Source of the DNA: an uncultured Candidatus Saccharibacteria bacterium
GTDB lineage: Bacteria; Patescibacteriota; Saccharimonadia; Saccharimonadales; JAGQNJ01
Direction of reading: 5' to 3'
Assembly (NCBI GenBank): GCA_964584895.1
Contig: CAZPAW010000002.1
Span: 194,748-258,747, forward strand
DNA: 64,000 nucleotides
Shown here: positions 12,379 to 53,828 of the stretch, piece by piece
Position numbering within the stretch: the stretch's first letter is position 1
Layout: each line of letters begins with the position of its first letter
The notes under the pieces: model-generated
What the model was told of the DNA's origin: nothing
The model's database searches: none
Seen by the model: the letters and a program-made list of their open reading frames with translations, nothing else
Made by a program: the position numbers and the translations under genes

Positions 12379-12453
12379 TCCCGGGTAGCTCAATGGTGGA
12401 GCAAGAAGCTGTTAACTTCGAGGTTGTCGGTTCGAGTCCGACCCCGGGAGCCA
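12379..12453 (+). tRNA. tRNA-Asn (anticodon GUU), CCA encoded
   Basis: Hand-folded cloverleaf: acceptor TCCCGGG/CCCGGGA, D arm GCTC/GAGC, anticodon loop CTGTTAA, T arm GTCGG-TTCGAGT-CCGAC, discriminator G plus CCA. Confidence 0.9.
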
Positions 12454-12475
12454 GACCCAGCACTAACAGAGGTAG

Positions 12476-12498
12476 ACCAGGTTCCTAGACCTGGTTTT
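12476..12498 (+). terminator. hairpin plus T-run downstream of tRNA-Asn
   Basis: ACCAGG-ttcctaga-CCTGGT followed by TTTT. Confidence 0.45.
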
Positions 12499-12706
12499 CT
12501 TATTTTCGTCAAACCACCTCTTATCTGTTATTTGGTTCGAGTCTGATTCATCTAAACTTATGTAAAGTAGTGTGGTTGTTGGAACCGAAAATAAGACAGA
12601 CGGTACCTGTTATTTCTTCTCTGTTTGGTTCTAAGCCTGACTGATTGTTCTATGACAAACAGGCAGGCTGAAAGCCGACCAGGCTCTGTGACCATCAATT
12701 ATTAGT

Positions 12707-13786
12707 TTAGTACCGACGTATTTGTCGGATTAGGCTATGTAGAACACCTCCGCTTTGCTCAAAGTCGGGTTGGCTGTGAAGATCTTCAATTTTTTCTTGA
12801 ACGCCATCGTCGATTTGCCACCTAGCTCCAACCAGAGCATCTGCTAAATATTCAGGCTTTGTAACGGCTGCAAGCACGACAGTGCTTTCACGAGTTGCAA
12901 GCCACGCAATAGCGGCTTGAGCCAAGTTATGGCTAGTAGTCTCAGCTTCGGAGGCTATTCCTTGCAGTAATCCAACAGTCTCAATCAATTGAACAATTAT
13001 TGGCGCTGGAGGCTGATCTATGGCTTCTGCTTCTTCCACTTCATGGCTTAATGCAGTCATTATCTCAGGAAGCCTTTTATTAGTTAAAACACCTTTTACT
13101 AAAGGACTATGAGCAAGTACAGTTAGTCCTTCATCATGTGCTAGCTCAACTTCGACTAGCTGCGATGGCGATAACATATTCACAAACGGCTGAGTCGCTG
13201 CTGGTCTTCTAAGTCCACGATCATCACATGCTTCCAGAAATGCTTCGAGTTGAGCAACACTATAGTTAGATAGCCCATATTCACGAATTTTCTCAGCTTC
13301 AATCAGTTCACTCATAGTTTCAGCGTGGGCTTCATGAGCAACTCGTTCATCTGGAACATGCAACTGATAAAGATCAATTATGCCCACATCATCACCAAGG
13401 ACAAGCAGACTCCTATCAACCTGATTGCGGATTCTCTCTGGTGTAGTGTCACCTTGATGACCTTCTTCACGCCATCTCATCTGCTGCTCAGCAGTTGTGC
13501 CAAGTCCAGTTTTTGTAGCGATTATTACTTCATTTCTTGGTAGCACTTCAGCGCTCACAGCTCTACCAATTGCCAGCTCAGTTCCGTAATTATCAGAGGT
13601 ATCAAATAATGTTATTCCAGCTTCGTGAGCACGCCTGAATGACTCAATGGTGTCGGCCGCGTCTAGTTTGTCACCCAAGTGGTACGTTCCGTAGCCAATA
13701 TTCGGGGAGGTTACAGGTATATCTCCTATATGAATAGCTTGTTCAGCTTCACTGAAACCTTCTGGTTGAGAATTCGACATACTCAA
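12707..13786 (-). CDS. aldo/keto reductase family oxidoreductase
   Basis: 359 aa. GYGTYHLGD..., ITLFDTSDNYG and IIATKTG fit the AKR pattern. Confidence 0.8.
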   Translation of the reverse strand: MSMSNSQPEGFSEAEQAIHIGDIPVTSPNIGYGTYHLGDKLDAADTIESFRRAHEAGITLFDTSDNYGTELAIGRAVSAEVLPRNEVIIATKTGLGTTAEQQMRWREEGHQGDTTPERIRNQVDRSLLVLGDDVGIIDLYQLHVPDERVAHEAHAETMSELIEAEKIREYGLSNYSVAQLEAFLEACDDRGLRRPAATQPFVNMLSPSQLVEVELAHDEGLTVLAHSPLVKGVLTNKRLPEIMTALSHEVEEAEAIDQPPAPIIVQLIETVGLLQGIASEAETTSHNLAQAAIAWLATRESTVVLAAVTKPEYLADALVGARWQIDDGVQEKIEDLHSQPDFEQSGGVLHSLIRQIRRY

Positions 13787-13853
13787 TAGTATGTTAGAGT
13801 AGTAATATTTCTACAAGCATTAACAGTATTGTCAAATTTATAAGCAGTATAGT

Positions 13854-15143
13854 TTGGAAGCCAACCTGATTAGGCTATGCGATACTATCAGTATGCCGAC
13901 AATTAACGGAACAATTTATCCTGAATCAAAACCGATACTTCATAACTTCAATGAGCTCAACATACTAATACTTGGAGAATTAGGTGACGACGTTGAACAG
14001 TTTGTAGCCAGTCTTGAGGTTCTCAAACGATATCTTATAGATGCAGGTCGTCCTGATATCAGTATCAAGCTTCATTGCACTAGCACTGCAACAGATACAG
14101 TGGCTAATAGATTAAATATTACTAAACATAGTATTAATCCTGTCACTCAAGAACAGCTGATAGAAGCAGTTATTAGCCTAGATATCGATATTGTCTTTGA
14201 TCAAGATGTTCAATTTGACCAAAAGTTCCTTTGGAGTAAATTCTATGAATTCGACGCGGTTAAATCCATCAATAAACTTCGAAGATCAGTAGAAGACTAC
14301 TTGGTTGGCAGCGGTATTGCTTGGACATTTGAAAGTCCAATATGGAACATGCCTCTTTTCATGAAGTATATGGCAGTGCCAGGTATTTGCATGGACTTTT
14401 TCACATTCATGGGCGAATGTGTAGAGAATCGAGGGTACACAGATGATCAAAAAGAAAAGGTTAGATATATAACCAACAAAATCAAACAGGTTGAGTATGC
14501 TCGTGACATTCTGCATTACCATATAAAGCGCATGCGAAAAGCAAGGCGCAATGGCATGTCTGATGATGATTACAACATTCAGCTTAACTATCACCTGAGC
14601 AACTTCTATTTCCTTTTAGCAGGCACATTAGACTCTTTAGCGAGACTAATCAATGATGTTTATAGATTAAAACTTACGAAATACTCTGACTTAGGGGTCG
14701 AAAAGAAGGGGTTCATTAATGCAAACCGCAAAAAACGAACAGGCTTCGTTAGCGTTTTTAATCTCAAGAAGCCCAAAAAATGGATCTCTTTTCTAAAGGA
14801 GCGTCGTAATTTTATAGCTCATGATGGAGATATGAGACAAACACCTATCGTAAAAGAGAAGAAAAAGAAACTAACAGATGAAGAGGTAAACAATATTGTA
14901 GACAGACAAGTTGACTGGGTATTGCTGGCACGTATATTACCTTCAGAAATATATCAGGCTCAGAGAGATCAAGCCGTAGAACTGACTAGAATCAAGAATA
15001 ATTATGAAGTAATTGCAGAAAAGATTATGATGGTGCCAAAAAAAGGAGGGATTAAAATGCACTCTCCACTTATAGATATTGATCATGATTACGAGCAGTT
15101 CGTGGAAATATTATCAAAGGCCTTAGACAGGCTTAAGAAGTAA
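13854..15143 (+). CDS. hypothetical protein with HEPN-like RX4H motif
   Basis: 429 aa (TTG start in the track; the ATG at 13893 is an alternative). ERRNFIAHDG contains R-x4-H inside a predicted helical C-terminal half, as in Abi/HEPN-type proteins. Assignment is tentative. Confidence 0.45.
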   Translation: MEANLIRLCDTISMPTINGTIYPESKPILHNFNELNILILGELGDDVEQFVASLEVLKRYLIDAGRPDISIKLHCTSTATDTVANRLNITKHSINPVTQEQLIEAVISLDIDIVFDQDVQFDQKFLWSKFYEFDAVKSINKLRRSVEDYLVGSGIAWTFESPIWNMPLFMKYMAVPGICMDFFTFMGECVENRGYTDDQKEKVRYITNKIKQVEYARDILHYHIKRMRKARRNGMSDDDYNIQLNYHLSNFYFLLAGTLDSLARLINDVYRLKLTKYSDLGVEKKGFINANRKKRTGFVSVFNLKKPKKWISFLKERRNFIAHDGDMRQTPIVKEKKKKLTDEEVNNIVDRQVDWVLLARILPSEIYQAQRDQAVELTRIKNNYEVIAEKIMMVPKKGGIKMHSPLIDIDHDYEQFVEILSKALDRLKK

Positions 15144-16431
15144 CTCCTTTTATAAATATTTGACCATTTTTAATGCTTAATTTTGAGACAATTCCTTCAG
15201 AAAGTGCTGTTTTCTCAAAATCTGTACCGCTTTGTAAAACGTACCTTGAGTACTCAATCAATGGCTGATCCAGCTTTTGACTAAACTTATAGTGTTTGAA
15301 TATGGCATCAGAAGTGTTTCGATGCTTTTCAGAAGCTGAAACTAGTTTGCTGCTAAACTTCATTTCTTGGTGGTTTGATTCTATAAAATTCTGGAGCAAT
15401 ACACATAAGTCCTTCTCATTTATATACTTTTCTTTGCAATTCGGATCAACTCGGCGTGTACAGTTGTAGTAGACGTGCCGATTGTACTCACCATTCTTTA
15501 GTTTCTTGAATTTCTCTTGAGCCGTGATATCAGCTCCACATCGACCGCACTTTAGTAAGCCACGAAAAGGGAAGCGCTTTGATCCCCAAACCCCTTTATT
15601 TGCTCCTCTCGTTTGCTGTACGTGCTCAAAGAGCTCTTTAGAGATAAGTGGCTTGTGAGCGCCTTTATACCATTTAGCACCCGGTCCTTCTGGGTATTGA
15701 AACTCTCCGTAGTAGAAAGGATTTTTCAGTAGAGCTAAAACTTGGCTTAACGTCACTGGGCCACCAGATCTACTAGTAAAGTTTTGATCGTCCAGCCAGT
15801 TCTTCGTTCTTCGACCACTCCAGCCCTCATAAGCTGTTTTCTTGAACACTTCGACAATAATTTCAGCACGTTCTGGATCAGGAATGATGTCTTTCACGCC
15901 ACCGAACGCTCTGTTGATATATCCAAGTGGGGCAACTCCAGGGCGCCAACCCATCTCACACTTGGTTCGTATGCCTCGTTTCACATTGATACTTTTGTTG
16001 TCATTTTCGAGCTTAGCTTGTGAGCACAGGATCATCAGCAGGAACTTCTCATTCGGGTTATTGCTGAAGGTTTGAGAGAAGGTTTTGATGTGTAGGAGCT
16101 TTCCTTGGTCCATGAGATCGACTATTGCGCCTAAGTCTCCTGCGTTCCTACTGAGCCTATCGGGAGCCCAAGTTAGCACTGCATTGTACTTACCCTCATC
16201 AATTCCTTTTAGCAGTTCATTATAGACTGGACGTTGCCCAGAGTCTTTAGCTGAATGACTTTCTTTTAATTCGCTGACGATATCAAGACTATCGTTTTCT
16301 GCCAGCGACCTCATCTCTTTCAGTTGCGAATCGACGGAGAGTGCTTGCTGTTCATCACCTTCAGATGATTTACGGGCATATAGGCAATATTTTAGTGGTG
16401 ATTGATCCTTATCTACCATGACCAGCAACAA
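15133..16431 (-). CDS. large serine recombinase
   Basis: 432 aa. Resolvase-type catalytic domain (YCLYARKSSEGD with the nucleophile Ser, WAPDRLSRN), a recombinase domain and a zinc ribbon (CGRCG...YYNCTRR). Probable true start is MVDKD at 16419. Paralogue at 32555..33838. Confidence 0.9.
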   Translation of the reverse strand: MLLVMVDKDQSPLKYCLYARKSSEGDEQQALSVDSQLKEMRSLAENDSLDIVSELKESHSAKDSGQRPVYNELLKGIDEGKYNAVLTWAPDRLSRNAGDLGAIVDLMDQGKLLHIKTFSQTFSNNPNEKFLLMILCSQAKLENDNKSINVKRGIRTKCEMGWRPGVAPLGYINRAFGGVKDIIPDPERAEIIVEVFKKTAYEGWSGRRTKNWLDDQNFTSRSGGPVTLSQVLALLKNPFYYGEFQYPEGPGAKWYKGAHKPLISKELFEHVQQTRGANKGVWGSKRFPFRGLLKCGRCGADITAQEKFKKLKNGEYNRHVYYNCTRRVDPNCKEKYINEKDLCVLLQNFIESNHQEMKFSSKLVSASEKHRNTSDAIFKHYKFSQKLDQPLIEYSRYVLQSGTDFEKTALSEGIVSKLSIKNGQIFIKGVTS

Positions 16432-16478
16432 GGTACCGCAATGGTTTTAGAAGTCCAGCGATATTGTAAAATTTAACT

Positions 16479-17129
16479 ATGACAAAAGTATTTGACGTAT
16501 TACCTGAAATTGAAAAGAAATTGATTAATTCATTAGCTGATTTTCTTAAAGCAGATGATGGCAAGTTTCACATGTGGGAAATTGCAGTATTTGTGCCGGC
16601 TGTAAATCAGTTTATCCACTATTTAAGTGGTCTCAATGCCTCTTTAGAGAAGAAGAATTACATTACGGCAATGAGCAGTTTGAGAGGAATGATAGAATCG
16701 CTGGCTGTTGTTATATATGATGGTACTGAAAAATTAACTGAGGAAGCCTACAAAGAATTTATGTCGAAAGGCAGGCTCCCAATATGGAACGACAAAAAGA
16801 AGAAATGGCGCAAGGTAACCAATAAGGAGCTCGTAAAAGGACTTGAAGATAAGCTCAAGATTAATGTTGTAGAGATATATGATCATACGAATGATTTGCT
16901 GCACTTTTCAGCTACGCACATGTCATTTTTAGGAGGTGCAAACCCACAGGAAGACAACGAAGAGAGAATAGCCAAAATACACGTAGGATCAGAAGATGAA
17001 ATACCCCCAGAAAAAGTAAAGGAAATTATTGAATATAGTGTCGAGCTAGCAGCACGATTAGGGGGCTGCATTGAATCAGGAATTGAAGAGAAGGAGCGAC
17101 GATCTATGCGCTCAAATCAAAAAAACTGA
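16479..17129 (+). CDS. hypothetical protein
   Basis: 216 aa. TAAAAT box lies exactly 6 nt before the ATG. No family recognised. Confidence 0.5.
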   Translation: MTKVFDVLPEIEKKLINSLADFLKADDGKFHMWEIAVFVPAVNQFIHYLSGLNASLEKKNYITAMSSLRGMIESLAVVIYDGTEKLTEEAYKEFMSKGRLPIWNDKKKKWRKVTNKELVKGLEDKLKINVVEIYDHTNDLLHFSATHMSFLGGANPQEDNEERIAKIHVGSEDEIPPEKVKEIIEYSVELAARLGGCIESGIEEKERRSMRSNQKN

Positions 17130-17141
17130 TCTAGACCGTAA

Positions 17142-18215
17142 CTAGATAACGAATTCACTAACTGCTTCGACTATCTTTTCTGCATTCTTCTCAACATATT
17201 CTGCTGGGATGTTTCCGAAAACTTTTAGCTCTGCATCTTCTACGTCAGTAACACCTTCTACATTAATATATTTCTTTAGCGTGTCGTGCAGACGTTTACG
17301 CTCAGCTTTATCAGGCATCCAAGCATAGCTGACTGTGATCGAGCCATCGGTATAGACAGATATGAAGGCATTCGGAGAGATCTCGTTGAACGTTGGGTTA
17401 AATGATCCTCTTTTTGTCCCTGAGCCCCAACGGACAATATCAGCATGCTTTAGCGACCAGTCATATAGCTTTCTGAGCGCAGCTACCTGTGACGGTGGAA
17501 GATTTTGTTCAACTTCTTGCCAATAAGACTGTTCATCCCATTTTCTTCGACCACCAGATTTCTTAGTACTACCCATGTCTTTCTTAACTTCCGTGCCGTA
17601 GATTTTTGGGATCATTATTTCGTACGTGTCGTGTTTGTAGTATTCAAGCTCTACTGCATAAACATCAAACTGACTGTTACGGTTAATGAACAGAATCAGG
17701 TCTTTCAACTGGCGATGCAGACTATCCATCAGTACAACGAACTTGAAGATGCCGTTGTTTAAGTTGTTCTGAATACTGTCTAGTAGCGTATCCGTAGCTT
17801 CCTGATCGATGCTAAAAAATTCTTGTAACTGCTCGTGCAGGCTTTTATCAAACTGTTTTTGAACATGTTTCTCTAGCTGGGAAGTGAAGTCAGTGAAATC
17901 GATCGAGCTAGTCCATAACGACGCACCGTAGTCTAGAACTTGAGCCACAACTGTCCGTTTGTCCGGATTTTTGTACAGTTTAGTCTCTATTAGGTATATG
18001 TTGCCATTCTGATCAACGCCTAAGGCGTCAATTGGACCACTGTCAGTAGGGAATTCACGCGCAAGTACGAGTAGTCGAATATCCTCGTCAATTTCATAAA
18101 CTGGAATCGCATCAGGATTGTTATAAATGTATTGCTGTAGGTAATCTTCTTGTTCGAAGCTGCTTTTGCTGACTCTACGAGCACCTTTGCCGTTTTCTGA
18201 AACTATTATCGCCAC
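17142..18215 (-). CDS. PD-(D/E)xK (NucS/DUF91-like) nuclease-domain protein
   Basis: 357 aa. N-terminal IDALGVDQNGNIYLIETKLYKNPDKRTVVAQVLDY fits the D...ExK...Q..Y pattern of NucS-type endonuclease domains. The C-terminal 250 aa are unassigned. Confidence 0.55.
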   Translation of the reverse strand: MAIIVSENGKGARRVSKSSFEQEDYLQQYIYNNPDAIPVYEIDEDIRLLVLAREFPTDSGPIDALGVDQNGNIYLIETKLYKNPDKRTVVAQVLDYGASLWTSSIDFTDFTSQLEKHVQKQFDKSLHEQLQEFFSIDQEATDTLLDSIQNNLNNGIFKFVVLMDSLHRQLKDLILFINRNSQFDVYAVELEYYKHDTYEIMIPKIYGTEVKKDMGSTKKSGGRRKWDEQSYWQEVEQNLPPSQVAALRKLYDWSLKHADIVRWGSGTKRGSFNPTFNEISPNAFISVYTDGSITVSYAWMPDKAERKRLHDTLKKYINVEGVTDVEDAELKVFGNIPAEYVEKNAEKIVEAVSEFVI

Positions 18216-18258
18216 TGGACCTCCTGGTTAGTTTGATCCTTCGTGGCTCACATAAAAG

Positions 18259-18355
18259 GACAGCCACGCTGGATGTTGAGATCCCAAGCAAGCAGATTAT
18301 GCCTACTCTTTTATGCGTAGCTGCCCATTTGTTGGCATAATCTACGCATACAAGC
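18259..18355. other. conserved structured non-coding block (copy A)
   Basis: GACAGCCACGCTGGA and ATGCCTACTCTTTT are shared with 35441-35536. The hairpin ATGCGTAG(18313-18320)/CTACGCAT(18342-18349) is replaced in copy B by GTACGT/ACGTAC, with two compensatory pair changes. Confidence 0.5.
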
Positions 18356-18427
18356 AATGCGCTCTGCATACTTGGAATCTCAACGCTAACATTGTACCGC
18401 TAACAGATGTAGATTGCTAGTTAATAG

Positions 18428-19882
18428 TTAAATGCGATAGTTCGGACCAAAGAGGTCAGACCGCTTGCCGAAACGTATCGTACCGACGTTTGATTGTTCA
18501 TTGTTGTGTTCCAGCACAGCTAGTGTCAGCGCGTCGACAAGGTCATCGTGTTTTTCTACTCCAAACCCAACTAATTGCGTAATCAGCTCGTCAACTCCGC
18601 GTTCAGGAAACAGTATTATTCCTCGGTTTATTTTGTCGGCAATCATGTTGAGCCGTGCACGTTTTTCCGCCTTTGGTACTGAGCCAGTTACGTCGAGTCC
18701 ATCTGCCATCAGCACCTGTACAACTGCTGCTTGGTAGCCAACTTGTTCAACGTACAGTTTTGGCTGATCTTCAGAAGTGCTTAGTTGTTTAAGCTGGTCA
18801 ATAGTGGCGCTAAACGATAGTCGTTTATTGACTGGATTTGGTCTTACATACATACGCATGTTTTCACCACTTCCGATCACGTCGATTGCAAGTATCGCAG
18901 TAAAGTCAGCCTTGTCGTGTTCTGAGATAGCCAAGTCCACTCCAACAATGACCCGTGAGTACTGATCCCGAACCGGATCGGGTACCCGCTTATAGTGATG
19001 GATCATTTTATGCGTAATTATCTGTTCATCATCTGGAACTAGATGCAACATATACTCACGCTCCCAAGCAATCCTATTAGCAACTGAACGCTCTAGCTTC
19101 TTCAATGCCTGCTGATCAGGGTACTTGTCTGGCCAGTTACTCTTGCCATCCGTCATGATTGGACATTGAACAAACTTGCCATCAAGTTCATCTCGCTCGA
19201 TTCGCTCTTTTAGGCGCATCAGCAGTGAATCTTCATGCAGTAAGTTCCCGACTACAATCTTTTTAGTACCAGTATCACCAGCCGGGATTATTTCACTTGT
19301 GTACCAGTCAAAGGTTTTGCTCCGGCCTTCTTTTGTTTTGACTGAACTAATATCCTCGACATCATCGGCAATGATGAGATCTGGACGGTGAGCACCATGT
19401 CTAATCCCTCGTACGCTCTGTTCAGTCGAGATTGCTGCGATTCGGGCATTAAACTTCGGAATGAACAGAGAAGTCGAACCCCATTCTTCACGCTGTTCAA
19501 CAAATGGTCCAAGATCATTTGTTAGCAGTTCATTGCTTTCAAGTTCACGCTTTATGTTTTTTAGGTGAACCCCTGCCTGGTAGGTGGTTTGACTAGCAAT
19601 CAGTACGAACTTCTTTTGCTGAACACCAAGCACTGCCCAGATTGGGTATGACATAGTCATGATTGTCGACTTAGCAGAGCCGCGGAAAGCCATTACAACG
19701 GCCAAACTTAAGTCCTCATCTTCCGACAAAGCAAACAGTTCTTTGTGAATGTCAGCTATGCCGTGAGTGATGTAAGCCGAGAAGTACATGGCAAAGAACC
19801 ATTGATGGCTTTTAGTTGTAATTTCAGAACGTAATTTTTGATTGTTAAACATTTGTTTGGTTAATTCGTTAGTTGTCATCAT
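18428..19882 (-). CDS. terL: phage terminase large subunit-like protein
   Basis: 484 aa. Walker A-like AFRGSAKST, Walker B DLIIADDVED, and C-terminal RNase H-like nuclease residues (VGVDLAISE, KHDDLVDALT). Confidence 0.85.
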   Translation of the reverse strand: MMTTNELTKQMFNNQKLRSEITTKSHQWFFAMYFSAYITHGIADIHKELFALSEDEDLSLAVVMAFRGSAKSTIMTMSYPIWAVLGVQQKKFVLIASQTTYQAGVHLKNIKRELESNELLTNDLGPFVEQREEWGSTSLFIPKFNARIAAISTEQSVRGIRHGAHRPDLIIADDVEDISSVKTKEGRSKTFDWYTSEIIPAGDTGTKKIVVGNLLHEDSLLMRLKERIERDELDGKFVQCPIMTDGKSNWPDKYPDQQALKKLERSVANRIAWEREYMLHLVPDDEQIITHKMIHHYKRVPDPVRDQYSRVIVGVDLAISEHDKADFTAILAIDVIGSGENMRMYVRPNPVNKRLSFSATIDQLKQLSTSEDQPKLYVEQVGYQAAVVQVLMADGLDVTGSVPKAEKRARLNMIADKINRGIILFPERGVDELITQLVGFGVEKHDDLVDALTLAVLEHNNEQSNVGTIRFGKRSDLFGPNYRI

Positions 19883-20315
19883 TTTCCTCCTTAGTGGTTA
19901 GTAGTCCGGCCATTTGCAAAGCACCTGACACCATTTCGGCTTGCTCAGGCGATAGTTCTTGCTGTTTGGCTTGAACAGTTGCATCAACCTGCACTCGTGT
20001 CGCATATGCACGGTGATGATGTTTCAGCCAAAAGATTATGGCTGTCATATTCTTTTCTTTTATCCCCGAGATTAATTGCGATTCAGCCATGTCATTGATT
20101 AGTCCCGCGCTCTGTTCAAGCGCATCGTCACAAGCATCAGCAAAGACCTCGTCAGCTTTTCTCCACCGATAGTAAGTACTGCGGGGGACGCCTGCTTGTT
20201 TACAGGCGACCTCCACAACTGGCGTTTTGCTTAATTTTTCTACTAGCTTTTGTTTGTCTTTTTCTTGGTTACGACTCATAGCTTCTTCCTTTTCTGGCCT
20301 GTTAACTTCTCCCAA
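19869..20315 (-). CDS. HTH protein, small-terminase-like
   Basis: 148 aa. HTH at VACKQAGVPRSTYYRWRK. It overlaps terL downstream and the ParB-methylase gene upstream. The role is inferred from position and size. Confidence 0.55.
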   Translation of the reverse strand: MGEVNRPEKEEAMSRNQEKDKQKLVEKLSKTPVVEVACKQAGVPRSTYYRWRKADEVFADACDDALEQSAGLINDMAESQLISGIKEKNMTAIIFWLKHHHRAYATRVQVDATVQAKQQELSPEQAEMVSGALQMAGLLTTKEENDDN

Positions 20316-21598: not shown

Positions 21599-21600
21599 AG

Positions 21601-21649
21601 AAAACTCCTTTCTGTCTCGCGGTTTACCTCACGAGCAGTCAGGAGTTTT
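21601..21649 (-). promoter_or_regulatory. 5'-UTR hairpin able to sequester the Shine-Dalgarno of the ParB-methylase gene
   Basis: AAAACTCCT (21601-21609) and AGGAGTTTT (21641-21649) are perfect 9 nt complements. On the minus-strand mRNA the 3' arm contains the AAGGAG Shine-Dalgarno just upstream of the ATG at 21598. Confidence 0.4.
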
Positions 21650-22735: not shown

Positions 22736-22739
22736 ATTA

Positions 22740-27931: not shown

Positions 27932-27932
27932 A

Positions 27933-41446: not shown

Positions 41447-41447
41447 T

Positions 41448-46774: not shown

Positions 46775-47472
46775 TGACACGGACTTTTGAATATGGCACA
46801 CATCGCTACATTTACGGGTTGATACGTCAGGACAGAAAAACGCTAAGTCTCACAGTTGAGCCTTGTCTAGATATTATCTTGAAAGTTCCGGAAGATGCCG
46901 ACGACGAACGAATCGAAAAGTTCCTACGTAAAAAATGGATGTGGCTCAACAAGCAAATAACCTTTTTCGAAAAATACCGTCGGAAGTATTACCAAAAAGA
47001 GTACGTTTCTGGTGAGAGTTTTTACTATCTTGGTCGTCAGTACAAACTAGTCGTAGTTAATGGCAATAAAAACTCAGTTGCTCTCAGTAAAGGTAAACTT
47101 ACTATTACGACCACTAAGAAAACGACGGATGGTAAATCTAATCGAGCTTTGCTCGAACGATGGTACAAAAACCGCAGGCACGTTGTTTTCGCGGAACGCT
47201 ACGCAGAAGTACTAAAGAACTTTGATTACAAATTCACTCCCGAACTGACTGTACGCGTAATGGCAAGGCGTTGGGGCAGCTACATCAAGGGTGAGCGGAT
47301 TATTTTGAATCCACTGCTGATCCAAGCTACCAAAGAAGCAATAGACTATGTTATTACCCACGAACTATGCCATATGAAGTACAAGAACCATGATGCTAAT
47401 TTCTATATGTTACTTGAAACCAAGTTTCCCAATTGGAGCAAAACAAAGGAAAAACTGGAGTTACTCATATGA
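46771..47472 (+). CDS. YgjP/DUF45 (M48-like) zinc metallohydrolase
   Basis: 233 aa. HExxH in ITHELCHMKYKNH. ATGA overlap with hsdR. This family commonly follows hsdR. Confidence 0.8.
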   Translation: MMTRTFEYGTHRYIYGLIRQDRKTLSLTVEPCLDIILKVPEDADDERIEKFLRKKWMWLNKQITFFEKYRRKYYQKEYVSGESFYYLGRQYKLVVVNGNKNSVALSKGKLTITTTKKTTDGKSNRALLERWYKNRRHVVFAERYAEVLKNFDYKFTPELTVRVMARRWGSYIKGERIILNPLLIQATKEAIDYVITHELCHMKYKNHDANFYMLLETKFPNWSKTKEKLELLI

Positions 47473-48821
47473 TAATTTCTAAATCTGAATACATGATGTT
47501 TTTGAAGCAACCAGCATGGCTGTGGCTAAAAAAGAACGATCCAAAAAAGTTGCCTCCAGTTGATGAAAACACACAGGCATTATTCGACGCTGGTCATCAA
47601 TTTGAACCTTATGCTGAATCATTATTCCCTGAAGGCGCAACACTTGGTTTCTCTGACTATAGTGAATACCTATCGTTGCCTGAGCGAACGCAGGATGCAA
47701 TCAAAAACGGTCATCAAGTATTATTCCAACCAAGATTTGAATGGCAGGACTTTACCTGTATTTGTGACATTGTCAGTTTTGTCGATGATAATGAAGTTGA
47801 TCTTTATGAAATCAAGGCAAGCACTACTGCCAAGGTCGAACATGAATTTGATCTCGCATTCCAGACTGCTGTACTTGAAGGTACTGGCTTGAAGGTGCGG
47901 AGCATTTTCGTAATCCACGTAAATAATCAGTATGTGAGACGTGGTGCGATCGAAGCAGAAAAAATAACGCACGTAGAGGACATTACCGAAAAAGTTCGTA
48001 AAAGAAGTGAAGCAACTGCGAAATATATGCCTATAGCAGTAGCTACAGCCCAAAAAAAGAATATGCCCGATCCGTCACCTAATCTTGCCAAACTTGGCTC
48101 AAAGAAAGATTGGCTAAAAGTTTACGAAGCAATTATTCCGCAGACACCAAAACAATACCCAGCCGATATTGCACCTACGATCCAGCGAGATGAGATAAAA
48201 AACTTCTTGAACAATCTGAAGTACCCATTGTATTTCTTAGATTACGAAACGCTGATGAGCCTCGTACCATATTTCGATGGTCATCGTCCGTATCAACAAG
48301 TGCCATTCCAATATTCACTTCACATTCTTAAGTCGCCAGATGCTGATCTCGAATGGCGTGAGTATCTACACAAAGACAATTCCGACCCGGCTCGCCCATT
48401 GACAGAACAACTGATAAAAGATATTGGCGATTCTGGAGCGGTACTCGTATGGTATGAAGGATTTGAAAAAGCCCGTAATAGTGAGCTTGGTGACATGTTA
48501 CCTGAATATAAAAAAGCGATGGAAGCCATAAATAACAGAATTATAGATCTTATGCTTCCGTTCAAGAATAAATGGTATGATGATCCGCGATTTGAAGGCA
48601 GCGCAAGCATTAAACAAGTACTTCCCGTGCTTTGTCCTGAGCTGTCCTACAAAGACCTTGGGATACAGGAAGGTGGCTCTGCGCAAAGGCTATGGATGGA
48701 AGCCGTGCTGGACAACAAACGAGCTGATCAAAAAGATCAGATTCTTGCCGACCTAATCGAATACTGCAAACTCGATACTCTCGCTATGGTTGAAATATTT
48801 AGAAGGTTGCGAGACCTATGA
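47469..48821 (+). CDS. DUF2779-like protein (PD-(D/E)xK plus DEDD-like exonuclease halves)
   Basis: The MIISKSEYMMFLKQPAWLW N-terminus, CDIV...DLYEIKAS (D..ExK), and later YFLDYET and YCKLDTLAMVEI acidic motifs. ATGA overlap with the DUF45 gene. Confidence 0.6.
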   Translation: MIISKSEYMMFLKQPAWLWLKKNDPKKLPPVDENTQALFDAGHQFEPYAESLFPEGATLGFSDYSEYLSLPERTQDAIKNGHQVLFQPRFEWQDFTCICDIVSFVDDNEVDLYEIKASTTAKVEHEFDLAFQTAVLEGTGLKVRSIFVIHVNNQYVRRGAIEAEKITHVEDITEKVRKRSEATAKYMPIAVATAQKKNMPDPSPNLAKLGSKKDWLKVYEAIIPQTPKQYPADIAPTIQRDEIKNFLNNLKYPLYFLDYETLMSLVPYFDGHRPYQQVPFQYSLHILKSPDADLEWREYLHKDNSDPARPLTEQLIKDIGDSGAVLVWYEGFEKARNSELGDMLPEYKKAMEAINNRIIDLMLPFKNKWYDDPRFEGSASIKQVLPVLCPELSYKDLGIQEGGSAQRLWMEAVLDNKRADQKDQILADLIEYCKLDTLAMVEIFRRLRDL

Positions 48822-49243
48822 CGAATATCTACTTAGACATTGACGGAGTGTTATTGGCAAACGACCTAAACCCAGCTAACCACGCACCCGAATTTCTGAA
48901 ATACGTTTTAGAAAAGTTTCCTGATTCAACATATTGGTTAACATCTCATTGTCAGGGAGATGCTAATGTTCCGATACAGCATATAGGGCATTTGTTCAAC
49001 ACCGAGACAGTCGAGCTAATGAAAAAGATAAAGCCAACCAGTTGGGATCTAGCAAAAACTCATGCAATTGATTTCTCTCGACCATTTCTATGGTTTGATG
49101 ATGATTTATTCTTCGAAGAAAAGCAGTCGCTAATTGAACACAATTCATTAGATAATTGGATAGAAGTAGATTTATCTAAGAACCCCGATCAGCTACTAAA
49201 TTTTATTAACAGCTTTCCTATACCTGCAGGGATGGAAAATTAA
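48818..49243 (+). CDS. small HAD-like hydrolase-fold protein
   Basis: 141 aa. N-terminal YLDIDGVLL (DxDx motif of the HAD superfamily). Weak assignment. Confidence 0.4.
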   Translation: MTNIYLDIDGVLLANDLNPANHAPEFLKYVLEKFPDSTYWLTSHCQGDANVPIQHIGHLFNTETVELMKKIKPTSWDLAKTHAIDFSRPFLWFDDDLFFEEKQSLIEHNSLDNWIEVDLSKNPDQLLNFINSFPIPAGMEN

Positions 49244-49257
49244 AGGAGCAACGACAT

Positions 49258-50712
49258 ATGGACGAAGAGCAATTTCGTAAACTATTCGAAGAAGGCCTAA
49301 TAACCGATAGACCTCCCGAAATGTGGATGCCGATGAATACCAAAGATCGCAAATGGCAGAACTATTACACGGGTCGTGGTGGTGTCACTATGCACTTAGG
49401 CGGTGGCTGGATGATGAATGTCGACACCAACGAATTAGCACAAATAGCCAGTAGCTCAGATGTTGATGAGCAACTTATTAAATCAGTACAGGCAGTATTT
49501 GATGATCTCGGATATGAATATGAAACAGTAAGCGATAAGTTTGGACATGCAATAATTGTGCGTCATCAATTTAGTGTTTTGGGAAGCAAAGCACCATTAA
49601 CTCTAAAATTTAGTGAGTATGGTTTTGACCCTAAGAAAACAATGAATGATGAATTTGAGAATGAACTACATTCCGTCACACCAGATCACATAAAGGTTAG
49701 TGTTAATAATGTACCTGAGTATGACGATGAAGGCGAAGAACTAGGTACCTTCGGAGAAACGGGCTTAGAGTTCACTACTGAAATAGACCAGCCAATAGCG
49801 GCTGATTCTTTTCCGAGTTTTGTTGAAGCAAGGCGTAAAGAAATCGATAAGATACTCAATAAACTGGGTAACTATAGATTTAGCGATGAACCACACAAAG
49901 TTGATCAAGTGTTTTATGATCTGCAAGATGCGCTTGATTCTAAAGAATATAAAAACGCCAAAGGTTCGTTATTGTTCCCAGTAGGAAAGGACGAGTCTGG
50001 AAAGTTTGTTATAGCTGACCTGCATAAATTGCCGCATATTTTGGCCGGTGGGCAAACAGGATCGGGTAAATCAAACTTTACAGAAGGAACACTGATCCTG
50101 AGTCTTTTACATCGCTATTCGTCTGATGAACTTAAGCTTCTGCTGGTCGATCCTAAGATGGTACAGTTCACGCAGTATAATGGCATCCCTCATTTGATCA
50201 AACCAGTTATTACAACTCCAGATGATTCAAAAAATGCTATGGATTGGCTACTGAACGAGACGGAAGATCGGTTCGATACTCTTGCAGACAGTAAATCTAA
50301 GAATATAGAACAATATAACTCATCAGGCAAAGGTCATATGCCATTTGTAGTACTAATCATCGATGAAGTTGCAGACTTGATGATGGTTGACGGTAAGTAC
50401 TATGAGAAATCGTTTATAAAACTGCTACAAAAATCTGCAGCGGTCGGTATTCATATCTACATAGGTACGAGTAGACCAAGTGTGGATGTCCTGCCTGACC
50501 TACTTAGAGCAAACTTCGTTACTAAAATAGCTTTTAAGACGGCTTCTAAAGTTGATAGCGAAGCATTGATTGATGTAGCTGGTGCAGAAAACCTACAAGG
50601 CAGAGGTGACTTACTATTCAGCTCGCTTGATAGCTCTCTCCCAATCCATCTGCAAGCCCCATATGTTTCGGATGAATATATGGCTAAGTACGTGGAGGAC
50701 TTGAAGGCATAG
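49258..50712 (+). CDS. FtsK/SpoIIIE-family DNA translocase ATPase, no membrane domain
   Basis: 484 aa. Walker A GGQTGSGKSN, LLLVDPKMV, Walker B VLIIDEVADLMM. AAAGGAG Shine-Dalgarno upstream. Confidence 0.8.
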   Translation: MDEEQFRKLFEEGLITDRPPEMWMPMNTKDRKWQNYYTGRGGVTMHLGGGWMMNVDTNELAQIASSSDVDEQLIKSVQAVFDDLGYEYETVSDKFGHAIIVRHQFSVLGSKAPLTLKFSEYGFDPKKTMNDEFENELHSVTPDHIKVSVNNVPEYDDEGEELGTFGETGLEFTTEIDQPIAADSFPSFVEARRKEIDKILNKLGNYRFSDEPHKVDQVFYDLQDALDSKEYKNAKGSLLFPVGKDESGKFVIADLHKLPHILAGGQTGSGKSNFTEGTLILSLLHRYSSDELKLLLVDPKMVQFTQYNGIPHLIKPVITTPDDSKNAMDWLLNETEDRFDTLADSKSKNIEQYNSSGKGHMPFVVLIIDEVADLMMVDGKYYEKSFIKLLQKSAAVGIHIYIGTSRPSVDVLPDLLRANFVTKIAFKTASKVDSEALIDVAGAENLQGRGDLLFSSLDSSLPIHLQAPYVSDEYMAKYVEDLKA

Positions 50713-50714
50713 AG

Positions 50715-52235
50715 ATGAGCACTTCGCATGTTTGCCGATTCTGCCTCCGACACAAGCCGCTTACTGTAGCTGGTGTTTGCGATCAGTGTACCAATGATCT
50801 TTTTGCAAATGATGGGAAAGCTTCGATTCAAGGCGTTTCAAAGCTACTAAAGCTAAGTACAGCAACACTCCGAAGGCTCGAATCAACCGGTCAATTAACA
50901 GTCGACAGAAATGAAGCGGGATCACGGCGATATAGCAAGGCGACTATCGAATCGTATATCCTCAAAAGCAGTGATCAGCTAGCTGCTCGACTCACAAAAG
51001 GCAAAGTACAAGAAGTTACAATGGATGAGGTTGAGCAACTATCTGCGCCGTTTTCATCACTGTGTCCACTCTGTAATGACAATGATGTTTTTGATAAGGG
51101 CTACTGCATTGATTGCCTCTCTGACCTTATCAGCAAAGTGGATGCTACTAAGATTCTTGGGATTAGCTTGCCAAGACTAGAACGATTGCTCGAAGAATAC
51201 CCCGACCTTATTCACACCTACCCGTACATGACGCAAGTACGCATGAGTAAACGCGAAGTAGAAAGTTTCTTGGCAAACCAACCCGCTAAAGAAGTTTCGC
51301 GAGGAGCAAGATGGTCAAACCATTTCAGGCAGTGTCGCATATGCAAGACAACCGACAATGAGCATTATGGCGGTGGATATTGTATTGAATGTTACCCAAA
51401 AACAAATGAAGCCAAACTATTAAAAGGCTACCTTGGTGGTGAAAATCTTTCTGAAATAGGAGTGCGTCTAGGCTTTAGTCGAGAACGAGCTAGACAACTA
51501 TTTAACAAAGCAGTTGCAATCGATATTGAGAGACTTGGTGATGTAACTGAATATCGTAAGCAAGAAATACGTGACCAAATTGAACTTACCTATAAACAAA
51601 ATCGTGCAGCACGTGAATTCAAACATATTATCGAAGAAAATTATCAAGAAATAGTCAACAAGTTATCGAGTGAAATAATTATAAGTGAGTCCGGTATTGT
51701 TAAGGCGATCGGTTTACCGCCTAGTGCATCCTACCTAATCGATGAAGAATATCCTGAGTTTTTAGAAATTATAGCCAACAATAAGAATCGTTGGTCGTGG
51801 AAGTATGATGTATGTAGGATGTGCGGTAAGACTGAAGCAAAACACAAAAGATGGGGTTACTGCGAAAACTGTTATACAAGATCTGATGAATGGAAGAAAC
51901 AACAGTACGAATATCGAACTAACAACTACGAAAAGTTTCGTGAACACCAAAAAGCTTATGAGGCGGAGTACCATAAGCGACCCGAAGTTAAAGAGCGCAT
52001 GATTCAAAAAAGTTACAAACGACGTTATGACGGTAAACGTGAGGCAACTATCGAGGCTGATAACTATAAATGTCGTGACTGTGGAATAAATAGAGATGAT
52101 CACAAGGCAAAATATGGCCAAGATCTAGGTGTATTCCATATAGATGGCAATTTAGATAATAATAATCCGTCAAACCTAGTTACATTATGTAAGAGCTGTA
52201 TGGCTAGACGTGGAACGAGCGCAGCCGATGAGTAG
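50715..52235 (+). CDS. multi-zinc-ribbon / HTH / HNH endonuclease protein
   Basis: 506 aa. Four CxxC-x(n)-CxxC units interleaved with HTH-like segments (LSEIGVRLGFSRERARQLFNKA). C-terminal HNH (CRDCG...HIDGN...NLVTLCKSC). Confidence 0.6.
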   Translation: MSTSHVCRFCLRHKPLTVAGVCDQCTNDLFANDGKASIQGVSKLLKLSTATLRRLESTGQLTVDRNEAGSRRYSKATIESYILKSSDQLAARLTKGKVQEVTMDEVEQLSAPFSSLCPLCNDNDVFDKGYCIDCLSDLISKVDATKILGISLPRLERLLEEYPDLIHTYPYMTQVRMSKREVESFLANQPAKEVSRGARWSNHFRQCRICKTTDNEHYGGGYCIECYPKTNEAKLLKGYLGGENLSEIGVRLGFSRERARQLFNKAVAIDIERLGDVTEYRKQEIRDQIELTYKQNRAAREFKHIIEENYQEIVNKLSSEIIISESGIVKAIGLPPSASYLIDEEYPEFLEIIANNKNRWSWKYDVCRMCGKTEAKHKRWGYCENCYTRSDEWKKQQYEYRTNNYEKFREHQKAYEAEYHKRPEVKERMIQKSYKRRYDGKREATIEADNYKCRDCGINRDDHKAKYGQDLGVFHIDGNLDNNNPSNLVTLCKSCMARRGTSAADE

Positions 52236-53682
52236 CTTCACTCATCTTCAGGACCGTTCATATTACGAAGATCGCTACGATGATGGCACTGTAGCAAAAT
52301 GTCGTTCGGGTGAGCGGATTGTTAACGATACTTTCAAGATCATGGAAAAGAAGCTCACAAAAAAAGAGCTGACAGAAAGATTGCCGGGCTGGTATCTCCA
52401 ATATAGTTTGTACTATTTTTGGTTTGTTGAAACGGCAGCTGCTGAACGAGCAGAAAATCGGGAGATTACCATTACGAAGTGGATGGAAGAAGATGAAAAG
52501 AAAGATGACCGCTTAGCCAAAGCTCACATTTCAGGAGGAACTTACTGTCGAACTTGCGGAAAGGACATGGGTGTTATCAGCAAGGACTATATGCGCCGAG
52601 ATAATCGCAAAGACGATGATATCCTCATCATGTTTGAATGCGTAGAATGCAATAAGCGTATGGCACTTTGGGAAGACGGCACAGAATGGGAGGGTGCGAA
52701 GCATGAATGCGAGAAATGTGGCGGTAATACTGTCTCAAAAATCACCAAAAAGTTTGATGTTATTACATGGACTGAGACGTGTGAGAAATGCAAGCATATT
52801 AAAACTGACACAATTGATCTAACGGATACAAAAAGTGAACCAGAACCAGTCGATAAATACCTAGAATTAGACCGTAAACGTTTCGTATTCGACAAAGATA
52901 TGATGTTCAGATACGAGCAAAAGCTCAACCATTTGGTTCGTAGAGCAAAGTTACACGCAACCGAACAAGATAAAGTCGAGCATGTTGATGTATATGATGG
53001 TATCAAGCAAGTTAAGAAGCTCAAGATCGCCCAACTCAAGGAACTACTAGAGCCAATATTCACAAAAGAAGGTTATAGTGACTTCAAACTCGGTGATCCG
53101 CAGATTGGTCGTGAAGTATCGCTTGAATTCAGCTGTCTAGATACTAAAGATGACCGTGAAGAGTACCAAAGCAAGAAAACGCTTCACAAGGCAATTGAGA
53201 AGGCTCTGGAGGAAACTAACTGGCGGTTAATGAGTGCTGGTGTGAGTTACAGGCTCGGATTTTTGACAGGAAGTCTAAGGGCGTACGAAAGTGAAGAAGA
53301 TTTAAAGAAATTAGTCGAGCAATGCATGAAGAAGGGCTACGTTCCGAAAGCAGAGCCTAAAGAACCAGCAGAAACTGACAGTAAGCCAAAAGACGAGTTC
53401 TATAACCGCGATATGCGTGAATCGGTCCTCGTCTATTTCGATAAGTTGACGCTAGGCAGCGTACCAGCTGAGATTACACTCAAAAGCGGAATCGTAAAGC
53501 CGACTAGTCTACCAGTATTGTATGGAGAAATGAACCCACTGTTACGAGTATTTATTCCTATGCGAGATGACGATAATTCGGTGCCAAAGTTTGTTCGAAA
53601 CTACGATTTTAAGTTTGGTGATGACAAGAAAATGGCAAAAGTCCGCAAGGATAGTCGAGGACGCAAGATACGCCTCGTTTAG
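52228..53682 (+). CDS. zinc-ribbon protein, unknown function
   Basis: CRTCGKDM...CVECNKRM and CEKCGG...CEKCKH ribbons. ATG at 52228 overlaps the upstream stop (track GTG start at 52210). Confidence 0.45.
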   Translation: MSSFTHLQDRSYYEDRYDDGTVAKCRSGERIVNDTFKIMEKKLTKKELTERLPGWYLQYSLYYFWFVETAAAERAENREITITKWMEEDEKKDDRLAKAHISGGTYCRTCGKDMGVISKDYMRRDNRKDDDILIMFECVECNKRMALWEDGTEWEGAKHECEKCGGNTVSKITKKFDVITWTETCEKCKHIKTDTIDLTDTKSEPEPVDKYLELDRKRFVFDKDMMFRYEQKLNHLVRRAKLHATEQDKVEHVDVYDGIKQVKKLKIAQLKELLEPIFTKEGYSDFKLGDPQIGREVSLEFSCLDTKDDREEYQSKKTLHKAIEKALEETNWRLMSAGVSYRLGFLTGSLRAYESEEDLKKLVEQCMKKGYVPKAEPKEPAETDSKPKDEFYNRDMRESVLVYFDKLTLGSVPAEITLKSGIVKPTSLPVLYGEMNPLLRVFIPMRDDDNSVPKFVRNYDFKFGDDKKMAKVRKDSRGRKIRLV

Positions 53683-53803
53683 GTGAGCAAAGTGCGGGTT
53701 ATGTTCGTAAAAACTTACTAAATTCGACTAAAAATGAGACATTTCAAATATATGCGTTTCGTGTCTCATTTGTCTCGTTTTGTGTCCTCTGATCCCTGTA
53801 AAA

Positions 53804-53828
53804 GTTCCGTGACCACTATGGGGAGCCA
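53804..53828 (+). repeat. tRNA-3'-end-like att copy (right end of element B)
   Basis: GTTCCGTGACCACTATGGGGAGCCA. It shares ATGGGGAGCCA with 28169-28179. Extended by three bases on the left (53801-53828), it matches 23 of 28 positions of 57130-57157. Confidence 0.65.

Follow-up and report, generated by a model that had tools for sequence, protein, structure and literature searches.

The stretch analyzed here, 64,000 nucleotides of contig CAZPAW010000002.1 from an uncultured Saccharibacteria bacterium (the window in what follows), contains a single tRNA gene by both ARAGORN and Rfam, a tRNA-Asn(GTT). Downstream of it lie two regions, A and B, for which the sequence supports a reading as separate, related integrative elements inserted head to tail at the tRNA 3' end (Table 1). 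The chromosome to their left carries an ATP synthase operon, Hsp20 and smpB, and to their right genes for an ADK-like kinase, a NUDIX protein and dihydroorotase/DHODH. The SmpB protein assigns the window to Candidatus Saccharibacteria. A first-pass annotation, made by a model from the letters of the window, had proposed such a tandem pair, and comparison with related contigs (denoted below by our labels, such as L103) agrees with it.

Both regions encode the same backbone, in the same order on the minus strand: a fusion of a ParB domain with a DNA methylase (ParB-methylase), a TerS-like helix-turn-helix (HTH) protein, the large terminase subunit TerL, a non-coding RNA (ncRNA) and a large serine recombinase (LSR). 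All backbone open reading frames (ORFs) are intact. Apart from the ncRNA, the collinear backbone had been recognized in the first pass and is recovered with Pfam, PHROGs and blastn; its HTH protein is indeed present in both regions and is here reassigned as TerS-like (PHROGs, Pfam). In a blastn comparison A matches B over the backbone only, at 65-80% nucleotide identity, and the paired proteins are 70% (LSR), 48% (TerL), 57% (TerS-like) and 73% (ParB-methylase) identical, in line with the earlier view that the pair is diverged and not a recent duplication.

Table 1. Features of the tRNA-Asn locus and of elements A and B, in window positions
Feature	Position	Strand	Evidence or remark
tRNA-Asn(GTT), CCA encoded	12379-12453	+	ARAGORN; Rfam RF00005, 63.6 bits
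Core copy 1, GGGAGCCA; attL of A	12446-12453	+	
Core copy 2, GGGAGCCA; hybrid junction P(A)/P'(B)	28172-28179	+	
Core copy 3, GGGAGCCA; attR of B	53821-53828	+	
Element A	12454-28179		15,726 bp; boundary ambiguous inside the 8-bp core
Element B	28180-53828		25,649 bp; L103 alignment to core; L010 alignment end at 53828
A left-end (P') arm, GACCCAGCACTAACAGAGGTAGACCAGGTTCCTAGACCTGG plus T-run	12454-12510	+	Conserved in L040, L184, L008, L010, L103
A right-end (P) arm, TGTCTCATTT..CTGTTAAGGGGTTCAAGACCCGCATG	28132-28171	+	tRNA-like
B right-end (P) arm, TGTCTCATTTGTCTCG..CCCTGTAAAAGTTCCGTGACCACTATG	53762-53820	+	Near-identical in L010; architecture shared with L008, L109, L140
A LSR, 432 aa (called product 428 aa; exact protein P0130)	15133-16431	-	Pfam Resolvase+Recombinase+Zn_ribbon_recom; PDB
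B LSR, 427 aa	32555-33838	-	Pfam; 70% identical to A LSR
A ncRNA, ~134 nt, invariant -10-like box upstream	18253-18386	-	Covariance model, 121.9 bits
B ncRNA with terminator hairpin (35460-35441)	35435-35577	-	Covariance model, 117.9 bits
A TerL	18428-19882	-	phrog_38, E 5.6e-72
B TerL	35989-37446	-	phrog_38, E 5.4e-71
A TerS-like HTH protein	19869-20315	-	phrog_4044 and other TerS families; Pfam Sf6_terminase, HTH_Tnp_1_2
B TerS-like HTH protein	37424-37843	-	Pfam, PHROGs
A ParB_N + N6/N4 DNA methylase fusion (N6_N4_Mtase)	20276-21598	-	Pfam
B ParB_N + N6/N4 DNA methylase	37840-39159	-	Pfam
B 116-aa protein, semi-conserved beside TerL or TerS	35608-35958	-	Homologs in L004, L006, L007, L109, L110
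A slot 1: aldo-keto reductase	12707-13786	-	Pfam
A slot 1: 429-aa protein	13854-15143	+	Weak HEPN_Cthe2314 match (Pfam)
A slot 2: 216-aa protein	16479-17129	+	No Pfam or PHROG match
A slot 3: 357-aa PDC-S11 candidate defense protein	17142-18215	-	PADLOC, E 2.8e-20
A slot 4: Dam (D12 methyltransferase), PbeA (PLD-helicase), PbeC (DndD-like SMC ATPase), 145-aa protein	21890-27397	+	PADLOC, Pfam
A right-end 175-aa protein	27404-27931	-	Kept at right ends of several relatives; homologs in L008, L109, L155, L159
B slot 1: CsoR, P-type ATPase, 119-aa protein, DUF305, 207-aa protein (copper/metal resistance)	28434-32524	+	Pfam
B slot 2: PDC-S14/DUF4357 candidate defense protein	33877-34719	+	Pfam, PADLOC
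B slot 3: endonuclease/exonuclease/phosphatase-family (EEP) protein	34716-35396	-	
B slot 4, part 1: half HsdS, HsdM, 333-aa protein, HsdS, HsdR; YgjP metallopeptidase	39312-47472	+	
B slot 4, part 2: DUF2779 (Cas4-like), 141-aa protein, FtsK/SpoIIIE ATPase	47433-53682	+	
B slot 4, part 2, also: 506-aa MerR-HTH + HNH protein, 490-aa protein	within 47433-53682	+	Module kept in L010

Boundaries of the elements and occupancy of the site

The 3'-terminal 8 nt of the tRNA gene form the recombination core, GGGAGCCA, and the gene itself is the left half of the chromosomal attachment site, attB. The core, which includes the tRNA-encoded CCA, is common to three sites: the tRNA end, the junction between A and B, and the right end of B. 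The longer repeat GGGAGCCAGACC has window copies at 12446 and 28172 only (0.07 expected), and ATGGGGAGCCA at 28169 and 53818 only, as the first-pass annotation had placed them; the second repeat is weak taken alone, because 0.45 copies are expected by chance. In full, the three sites read GTCCGACCCC-GGGAGCCA-GACCCAGCAC at attL, GACCCGCATG-GGGAGCCA-GACCAAGCAG at the middle junction and GACCACTATG-GGGAGCCA-TGAGTCTGGC at attR, with the chromosomal flank beginning at 53829 (TGAGTCTGG). To the right of the core, sites 1 and 2 are alike, and to its left sites 2 and 3 are alike, exactly as two insertions of related elements would leave. The likeness extends into both ends: the ~230 nt after the first two cores, where shared blocks had been noticed by eye, align with a local score of 54 (shuffled, 21 +/- 3), and the ~130 nt before the last two cores with a score of 44 (shuffled, 20 +/- 3). 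The joining partners deduced from these sites are an attP of the form ..ATG-GGGAGCCA-GACC.. and an attB of the form ..CCC-GGGAGCCA-TGAG..

Other genomes place synteny breakpoints at these repeats, as had been predicted. In L103, a B-like element that reaches the core (91% nucleotide identity over 5.7 kb, proteins 94-99% identical) lies directly at tRNA-Asn, then smpB, with no A. Its smpB is only 75% identical in nucleotides to that of the window, which shows that B-type elements move between diverged hosts, and the arrangement shows that such an element can occupy tRNA-Asn without A. In L010 (IMG/VR contig 3300009873_002614) the alignment to the right end of B stops exactly at the position equivalent to 53828, past which the left end of another element begins. 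Two contigs of the same species, L181 and L183, match the right chromosomal flank at 99.5-99.9% identity and carry a different element from the core onward, with the junction CGCTAGCGAGAGCCA-TGAGTCTGG; BLAST aligns them with the window down to position 53808, and inspection by eye places the divergence 5' of GAGCCA (53823). A-type left ends with different cargo follow tRNA-Asn in a close relative (L184) and in a distant one (L040). Judged from these contigs, the tRNA-Asn site is a hot spot whose occupant varies from strain to strain.

The alternative element in L181 (Logan ERR4450749) spans positions 10890-20630 of that contig and adjoins the ADK-like gene, its other end being out of reach; it is also seen in L183. 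It encodes a 543-aa LSR that is 28-34% identical to the LSRs of A and B, an FtsK-type ATPase, a Phage_CRI-type replication protein and DUF6804.

A singly occupied site, one of the arrangements the first pass had looked to in related genomes, is thus found in L103; an empty one did not come to light in this species, every retrieved contig of which shows an occupied site. Exact SmpB protein look-ups with two start codons returned no match, and an exact 26-nt right-flank pattern had zero matches in the JGI metagenomes, from which the species is therefore absent. Reads of the species are present in SRR13355620, SRR13355621, ERR4450749, SRR11524805, SRR10178536 and SRR31968544 and in the data behind GCA_964494845.1. 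Contigs with close SmpB and ADK homologues are too short or otherwise arranged (L265-L267), and the contig of the closest GTDB relative (L015) breaks ~100 bp past smpB. A tRNA-Asn with no LSR match in the downstream 9-10 kb is seen only in the distant relatives L023 and L035.

These comparisons also bear on the idea that A and B make up one composite element, or the products of a local duplication that later diverged. Two backbone copies do share one orientation, and A and B stand together in all contigs from the same sample. However, backbone DNA that is only 65-80% identical, with TerL proteins at 48%, an internal junction with the full core and both arm types, B-like elements alone at tRNA-Asn (L103) or beside a different partner (L010), and A-type left ends with other cargo (L040, L184) make this idea hardly credible.

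Between attR and the ADK-like gene there is a strikingly G+C-rich stretch (GGCAAGCCCACGCGCAGAAGC..GCCCCGGCCCCGGGGGCC, 53930-54010) in a genome of ~41% G+C; it has no Rfam match.

Serine recombinases and the ends of tRNA genes

The LSR is the sole recombinase found in each element, and Phage_integrase, the tyrosine integrase domain, matches no ORF scanned across the window, as the first-pass annotation had observed. Both LSRs contain PF00239 (E 2e-19 and 2e-20), PF07508 and PF13408; the YxRKSS motif (S22, S23) and four cysteines are invariant across 10 relatives, and their relatives in PDB are SPbeta YokA/SprA and TP901-1 Int. Serine integrases are the textbook case of recombinases that avoid tRNA genes, and the surprise that the first pass had registered at this pairing was justified, as the pairing turns out to be general. 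With the ten-LSR alignment as query, we found at least 563 relatives in JGI metagenomes and kept 80, out of thousands of homologues. Of the 80, 38 have a tRNA gene on the downstream side of the LSR gene, at a distance of 101 nt to 9 kb (in some ~100-300 nt), and in 38/38 it is convergent with the LSR gene, its 3' end facing it. Four IMG/VR loci have the same layout, and in many relatives the LSR gene is the element gene closest to the tRNA. In a neighbor-joining tree the target tRNA follows the LSR clade: in the clade of A and B, the eight further members in which a downstream tRNA can be seen all have tRNA-Asn, as do A and B themselves, while other clades have Gln, Ser, Glu/Lys or Trp. A protein search yields 7,962 LSR clusters at E <= 1e-80, few of them named, and these nearly all labelled Saccharibacteria or Saccharimonadales.

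One LSR homologue, P0175 (74% identical), carries the NCBI label 'Microbacteriaceae bacterium'. Actinobacteria are the usual hosts of Saccharibacteria, and the label could reflect mis-binning or a transfer between symbiont and host.

Convergent, clade-specific tRNAs, the ends of the relatives and the lack of any other recombinase together make it highly probable, at the level of sequence, that the LSR is the integrase of these elements, and we infer that it is the sole one. The family includes minimal members, L165 and L118, that hold little beyond an LSR and att sites. L118 (Ga0136601_1002110, 5,763 bp) encodes a related LSR, a JmjC protein, a methyltransferase and a NUDIX protein, is probably circular given its 44-bp terminal overlap, and has an attP-like site where P-like and P'-like arms flank 18 nt of the 3' end of tRNA-Gln(CTG); the contig may represent an excised or episomal state.

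Could a tyrosine integrase, supplied from another genomic locus or by a helper phage, integrate the elements in trans, leaving resolution or inversion to the LSR? A tRNA 3'-end target with an 8-25 bp identity block is the classic signature of tyrosine integrases, and tRNA and tmRNA genes, t(m)RNA, are used by 44.5% of tyrosine-integrase islands versus 14/297 serine-integrase islands (Mageeney et al. 2020, PMC7192596); that survey, the only large one to see such exceptions, called them unprecedented, with no earlier report, and requiring experimental proof. We nevertheless regard this as highly improbable, since no ORF scanned in the 64-kb window has a Phage_integrase domain, the LSR is often the gene nearest the tRNA and convergent with it in 38/38 cases, the LSR phylogeny tracks the target tRNA, and the minimal relatives L165 and L118 are reduced to little more than LSR and att sites.

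The arms that flank the core are conserved in a way that suggests how integration would proceed. The P' arm starts with GACC(C/A)AGCA, followed by a hairpin and a T-run; in A a terminator scan finds this terminator-like hairpin at 12474-12497, immediately after the tRNA. Its stem shows compensatory changes between elements (CCAGG/CCTGG, CCGGG/CCCGG, CCTGG/CCAGG). The P arm of A, CTGTTAA...GGTTCAAGACC...GGGAGCCA, matches the T-arm/acceptor of the tRNA at 18/25 positions, and the remaining right ends share GTTC-N2-3-GACC-N6-core. L140 has the same right-end architecture with the 3' end of tRNA-Ala as its core. The motifs GTTCCTAGACCT and TGTCTCATTT are not enriched across the window and are relevant just in the context of the ends. 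As a sign of LSR symmetry, a 9-bp inverted repeat of A (CCTCTGTTA/TAACAGAGG) was considered and dropped, being off-center and absent from B.

We propose that attP consists of the tRNA-like P arm, GGGAGCCA and the P' arm, and attB of the tRNA-Asn T-arm/acceptor, GGGAGCCA and TGAGTCTGG; each element's own LSR would recombine the two, with the crossover inside the shared 8-bp core. Integration would restore the last bases of the tRNA and supply a terminator hairpin, and the tRNA would stay intact because the element re-supplies those bases. A second element most likely entered at the attR (P/B') of a resident one, thereby adding distally: attR would look like attB because the P arm imitates the tRNA arm.

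Tandem arrays are common in the family: two IMG/VR contigs have them, one with L006+L010 and one with L003+L005, as do L008, L109 and L156. In L109, a 12.15-kb element within a 979-kb contig, the right end is followed by another left end. The junction in L008 was examined as a possible attP of a circular form and rejected; the rest of the contig has no ParB-methylase, and the junction is therefore another tandem one.

Mini-elements of 1-3 kb stand between the tRNA and the next full element in L040 (12197-13278), L018 (11748-13191), L104 (3.2 kb after its tRNA-Asn), L162 and L150 (both ~1 kb after tRNA-Ser). Those at Asn sites (L040, L018, L104) end in a conserved CCTAAAATTAGG motif and a 25-nt copy of the tRNA 3' end, and those at Ser sites (L162, L150) in a shorter copy, 10-14 nt, of the 3' end of tRNA-Ser. 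Non-autonomous riders and remnants are both possible readings of these mini-elements.

The terminase backbone, its RNA and possible packaging

The TerL of the family is intact. Over 36 family TerLs averaging 44% identity, the catalytic residues are at least 95% conserved, both in the ATPase (Walker A: R67, S69, K71; Walker B: D173, D174, E176) and in the acidic residues of the RNase-H-like nuclease (D316, D326, E379, D446, D447, D450). Known phage TerLs are at most 29% identical to the element TerL. Among IMG/VR TerLs, those above ~43% identity all lie in a ParB-methylase-TerS-TerL(-LSR) context, and those at 33-43% lie in phage contigs, of which six were scanned. The ORF that follows TerL encodes a portal protein (phrog_2662, E <= 1e-99) in five of these contigs, two of the five also have a major head protein (phrog_10), and several contigs have ParB or a ParB-methylase upstream. 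In A, B and their relatives, Pfam and PHROGs scans turn up neither portal nor capsid genes.

The interval between TerL and LSR holds cargo, which in relatives includes reverse transcriptases, VWA+AAA_5 and DISARM-like genes. Nine relatives keep the ParB-methylase and the TerS-like protein and lack TerL, a state reminiscent of satellites that have TerS only (L010, L104, L109, L110, L128, L132, L150, L172, L177); in L010 a DISARM-like pair, a PLD-helicase and an Eco57I-type methylase, takes its place.

The backbone can also be mosaic. In L004, L006/L187 and L007 the LSR is 97% and the ParB-methylase 82-88% identical to those of B, and TerL is ~45% identical to that of B and ~59% to that of A; the terminase gene has therefore been swapped between lineages. 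L210 has two TerL genes side by side in one element (3809-6692).

Immediately after TerL, or after TerS in elements that lack TerL, a non-coding block of ~130 nt on the backbone strand is 80% identical between A and B, above the conservation of the coding backbone. Eight aligned homologues share an invariant -10-like box and a 19-bp closing stem that joins the 5' and 3' ends, together with a variable hairpin, a hairpin with the invariant loop GGGCAGCUACG and a terminator hairpin. The pairing holds in 97% of alignment cells, compared with 27-39% when the partners are slid by 1-3 columns, and double changes are seen in 13 pairs, compared with 0-2 in the slid controls; 0/500 shuffles reach the observed values. 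A covariance model detects the RNA in 10 elements of the family part close to A and B, with weak matches in two more; besides A and B, the block is present in L004, L005, L008, L009, L101, L104, L111 and L128. Rfam has no family for it: at gathering thresholds the window gives the tRNA only, and an E-value search of region 18200-18440 in A gives only a sub-threshold DUF805b match. A strict sigma-70 scan calls no promoter for the ncRNA, whose promoter support is the invariant -10-like box only. We consider it a candidate new structured RNA tied to a mobile-element backbone.

We think it probable that A and B are two independent members of one family, LSR-mobilized and satellite-like defense islands that inserted successively at the tRNA-Asn 3' end. 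Because the backbone amounts to a phage-derived packaging module without virion genes, a phage-satellite life cycle suggests itself: after excision, the DNA of the element would be packaged by its own terminase into capsids made by a helper phage of the same host lineage, while defense systems or metal resistance in the variable slots would pay for carriage. An integrase and TerS and TerL genes are present, as in satellites, and the scans detect neither virion structural nor lysis genes. A satellite with its own terminase that borrows capsids is, in our estimation, the most economical reading of this gene content, which is what suggests helper-dependent packaging here; the portal-bearing IMG/VR phages with 33-43% identical TerLs are candidate helper-type phages.

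Several points weigh against this interpretation. In A, Pfam and PHROGs recognize no replication gene, repressor or helper-sensing regulator; in B the same scans find no satellite replication or repressor module, only the FtsK-type ATPase, the HTH-HNH protein and the 490-aa protein, which has no match among PDB sequences. TerL is missing from the relatives named above, membership in IMG/VR may merely reflect the terminase genes, and the FtsK-type ATPase of B could point to another transfer route. No empty attB, attP junction or circular form was found for this species among the contigs examined. An identity block of 8 bp, which reaches 18-25 bp in some relatives, would be more usual for tyrosine recombinases; no convincing quasi-palindromic LSR half-sites surround the core, whose 8 bp contain possible crossover dinucleotides. 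Finally, canonical LSRs recombine attP with neither attR nor attL, so tandem accretion at attR would require relaxed specificity.

Some of these points favor an alternative in which the LSR islands are real and the ParB-methylase, TerS and TerL, perhaps with the ncRNA, serve in anti-phage interference or defense, or in which the elements travel by natural transformation or by an FtsK-type double-stranded DNA route as in actinomycete integrative conjugative elements. No typical satellite replication or regulatory module is recognized in A, TerL is dispensable in several relatives, FtsK/SpoIIIE ATPases occur in B and in the L181 element (the latter also with its Phage_CRI-type replication protein), and defense genes dominate the cargo. 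We judge this alternative unlikely. The ATPase and nuclease residues of TerL are strictly conserved, and the gene order of the module is that of the packaging genes of real phages, where portal and capsid genes follow. Neither A nor most relatives have FtsK, which is accordingly treated as cargo and not as backbone.

The phage origin of the packaging genes, and the lack of an empty site or circular form for this species, could also mean that A and B are decayed, immobile remnants (integrase plus packaging genes) of two related temperate phages, around which unrelated genes have accreted. This is improbable: dozens of independent contigs have the same compact layout and never structural genes, the backbone ORFs are all intact and their catalytic residues conserved, the two ends show conservation down to single bases, a B-like element of 91% nucleotide identity sits in a host whose smpB is 75% identical, and the occupant of the site differs among strains of one species.

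Beyond the two satellite-like islands themselves, we put forward a wider proposal more tentatively, and with less confidence than we would need to call it probable. A very large LSR clade specialized in tRNA 3' ends, with a subclade for each tRNA (Asn, Gln, Ser, Glu/Lys, Trp and others), would drive a class of undescribed satellites that combine TerS and TerL, a ParB-methylase and a dedicated ncRNA and lack capsid genes. These would act as exchangeable carriers of defense in ultra-small episymbionts and grow in tandem through an attP arm that mimics the tRNA.

How do these elements compare with known systems? The closest analogy in layout is the staphylococcal cassette chromosome (SCC, including SCCmec), whose CcrAB or CcrC LSRs act at the 3' end of rlmH/orfX: here too LSR islands sit at the 3' end of a housekeeping gene that stays intact, with short direct repeats, tandem accretion and a shared backbone with swapped cargo. 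The target, however, is a tRNA gene and not the protein-coding gene rlmH, each element has one LSR, the backbone is of terminase and ParB-methylase, and the host belongs to the Patescibacteria. Beyond the shared LSR superfamily, the resemblance is one of analogy.

Phage satellites are likewise small and integrated, with an integrase, packaging-specificity genes, no full virion and defense cargo at fixed hot spots; the elements considered here are 12-26 kb. Phage-inducible chromosomal islands (PICIs), among them the Staphylococcus aureus pathogenicity islands (SaPIs), have TerS only, or, in the capsid-forming PICIs, TerS, TerL and capsid, the latter with their own capsid, portal and head-tail connector genes, none of which was found in A, B or their relatives. 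With TerS and TerL and without capsid or portal, A and B are intermediate between the two. They differ further in having no recognizable primase or replication module and no Stl- or AlpA-type regulator, and in their ParB-methylase and ncRNA. The PICI-like element (PLE) of Vibrio cholerae also uses an LSR as integrase (PMC6002521).

Tycheposons of Prochlorococcus resemble A and B as tRNA-site elements of a streamlined genome with tandem island arrays and modular cargo. A PICI-like subset of them has terS or a capsid gene and a minority carry an LSR, but their hallmark is a tyrosine recombinase (910/937), together with replication genes (bioRxiv 10.1101/2020.12.28.424599). A and B lack a tyrosine recombinase, whereas tycheposons lack the ParB-methylase/TerL backbone and belong to another phylum; the part that A and B take in their host corresponds to that of tycheposons in Prochlorococcus. 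With the classical tRNA-targeting islands and prophages of tyrosine integrases (Williams 2002, as cited in PMC12884075), A and B share the tRNA 3'-end target, an attP copy of the tRNA end that restores the gene, tRNA-specific clades and tandem arrays; the recombinase here is a serine one and the identity block goes down to 8 bp. Serine-integrase islands were also predicted computationally by TIGER, a few of them (14/297) in t(m)RNA genes, but that paper (PMC7192596) described no family, backbone or host lineage, whereas here every sampled LSR member with a downstream tRNA has the same layout. The elements thus fit none of SCC, satellites, tycheposons and tyrosine-integrase islands fully, a defining feature of each being missing. 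Literature searches for serine-recombinase or terminase elements in Saccharibacteria or Patescibacteria found no description, and the elements apparently form a large, undescribed family.

The observation at this locus is one instance of a much broader pattern across the LSR family. A whole, abundant family with a tRNA-3'-end habit makes the question of serine-integrase tRNA use testable with a few attP/attB pairs, and offers natural serine integrases whose attB, tRNA genes, no genome is without. Gene exchange in the tiny genomes of Saccharibacteria and other Patescibacteria is little known; these elements appear to be a main vehicle for their defense systems and metal resistance. If they are phage satellites, phage and then satellite would add a third layer to the parasitism of bacterium on bacterium. 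The conserved ncRNA adds a structured-RNA candidate linked to a mobile-element backbone.

Cargo

Cargo differs between A and B in four slots, and the first-pass annotation was broadly right about their contents (Pfam, PADLOC). In B, a gene set for copper or metal resistance occupies slot 1. Slot 2 holds the protein that the first pass had read as GIY-YIG, which matches PDC-S14/DUF4357. The HsdR, HsdM and HsdS genes of a type I restriction-modification system are all present in slot 4, followed by the cluster with the FtsK-type ATPase.

In A, slot 3 holds the protein that had been read as a NucS-like nuclease, which matches PDC-S11. The 175-aa protein at the right end has no Pfam, PHROG or PDB match and is a candidate regulator or directionality factor. 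In two relatives, tRNA genes lie inside the element just downstream of TerL, apparently as cargo: a tRNA-Arg(TCT) in L013 (864-1015) and a tRNA-Phe(GAA) in L191 (3741-3892).

Slot 4 of A, read in the first pass as an operon of Dam, a PLD-helicase and DndDE-like proteins, indeed combines Dam with the Dnd-related PbeA and PbeC (PADLOC, 5e-198 and 2e-63); the 145-aa partner has a weak DNA_S_mod_dnd_assoc_4 match in Pfam. With PbeA, PbeC and small partner genes present, A is predicted to carry a Pbe defense system. Between PbeA and PbeC the gene calls of L268 place a 62-aa gene (24875-25044), outside our ORF list because of its 90-aa cut-off, which may encode a PbeB-like partner.

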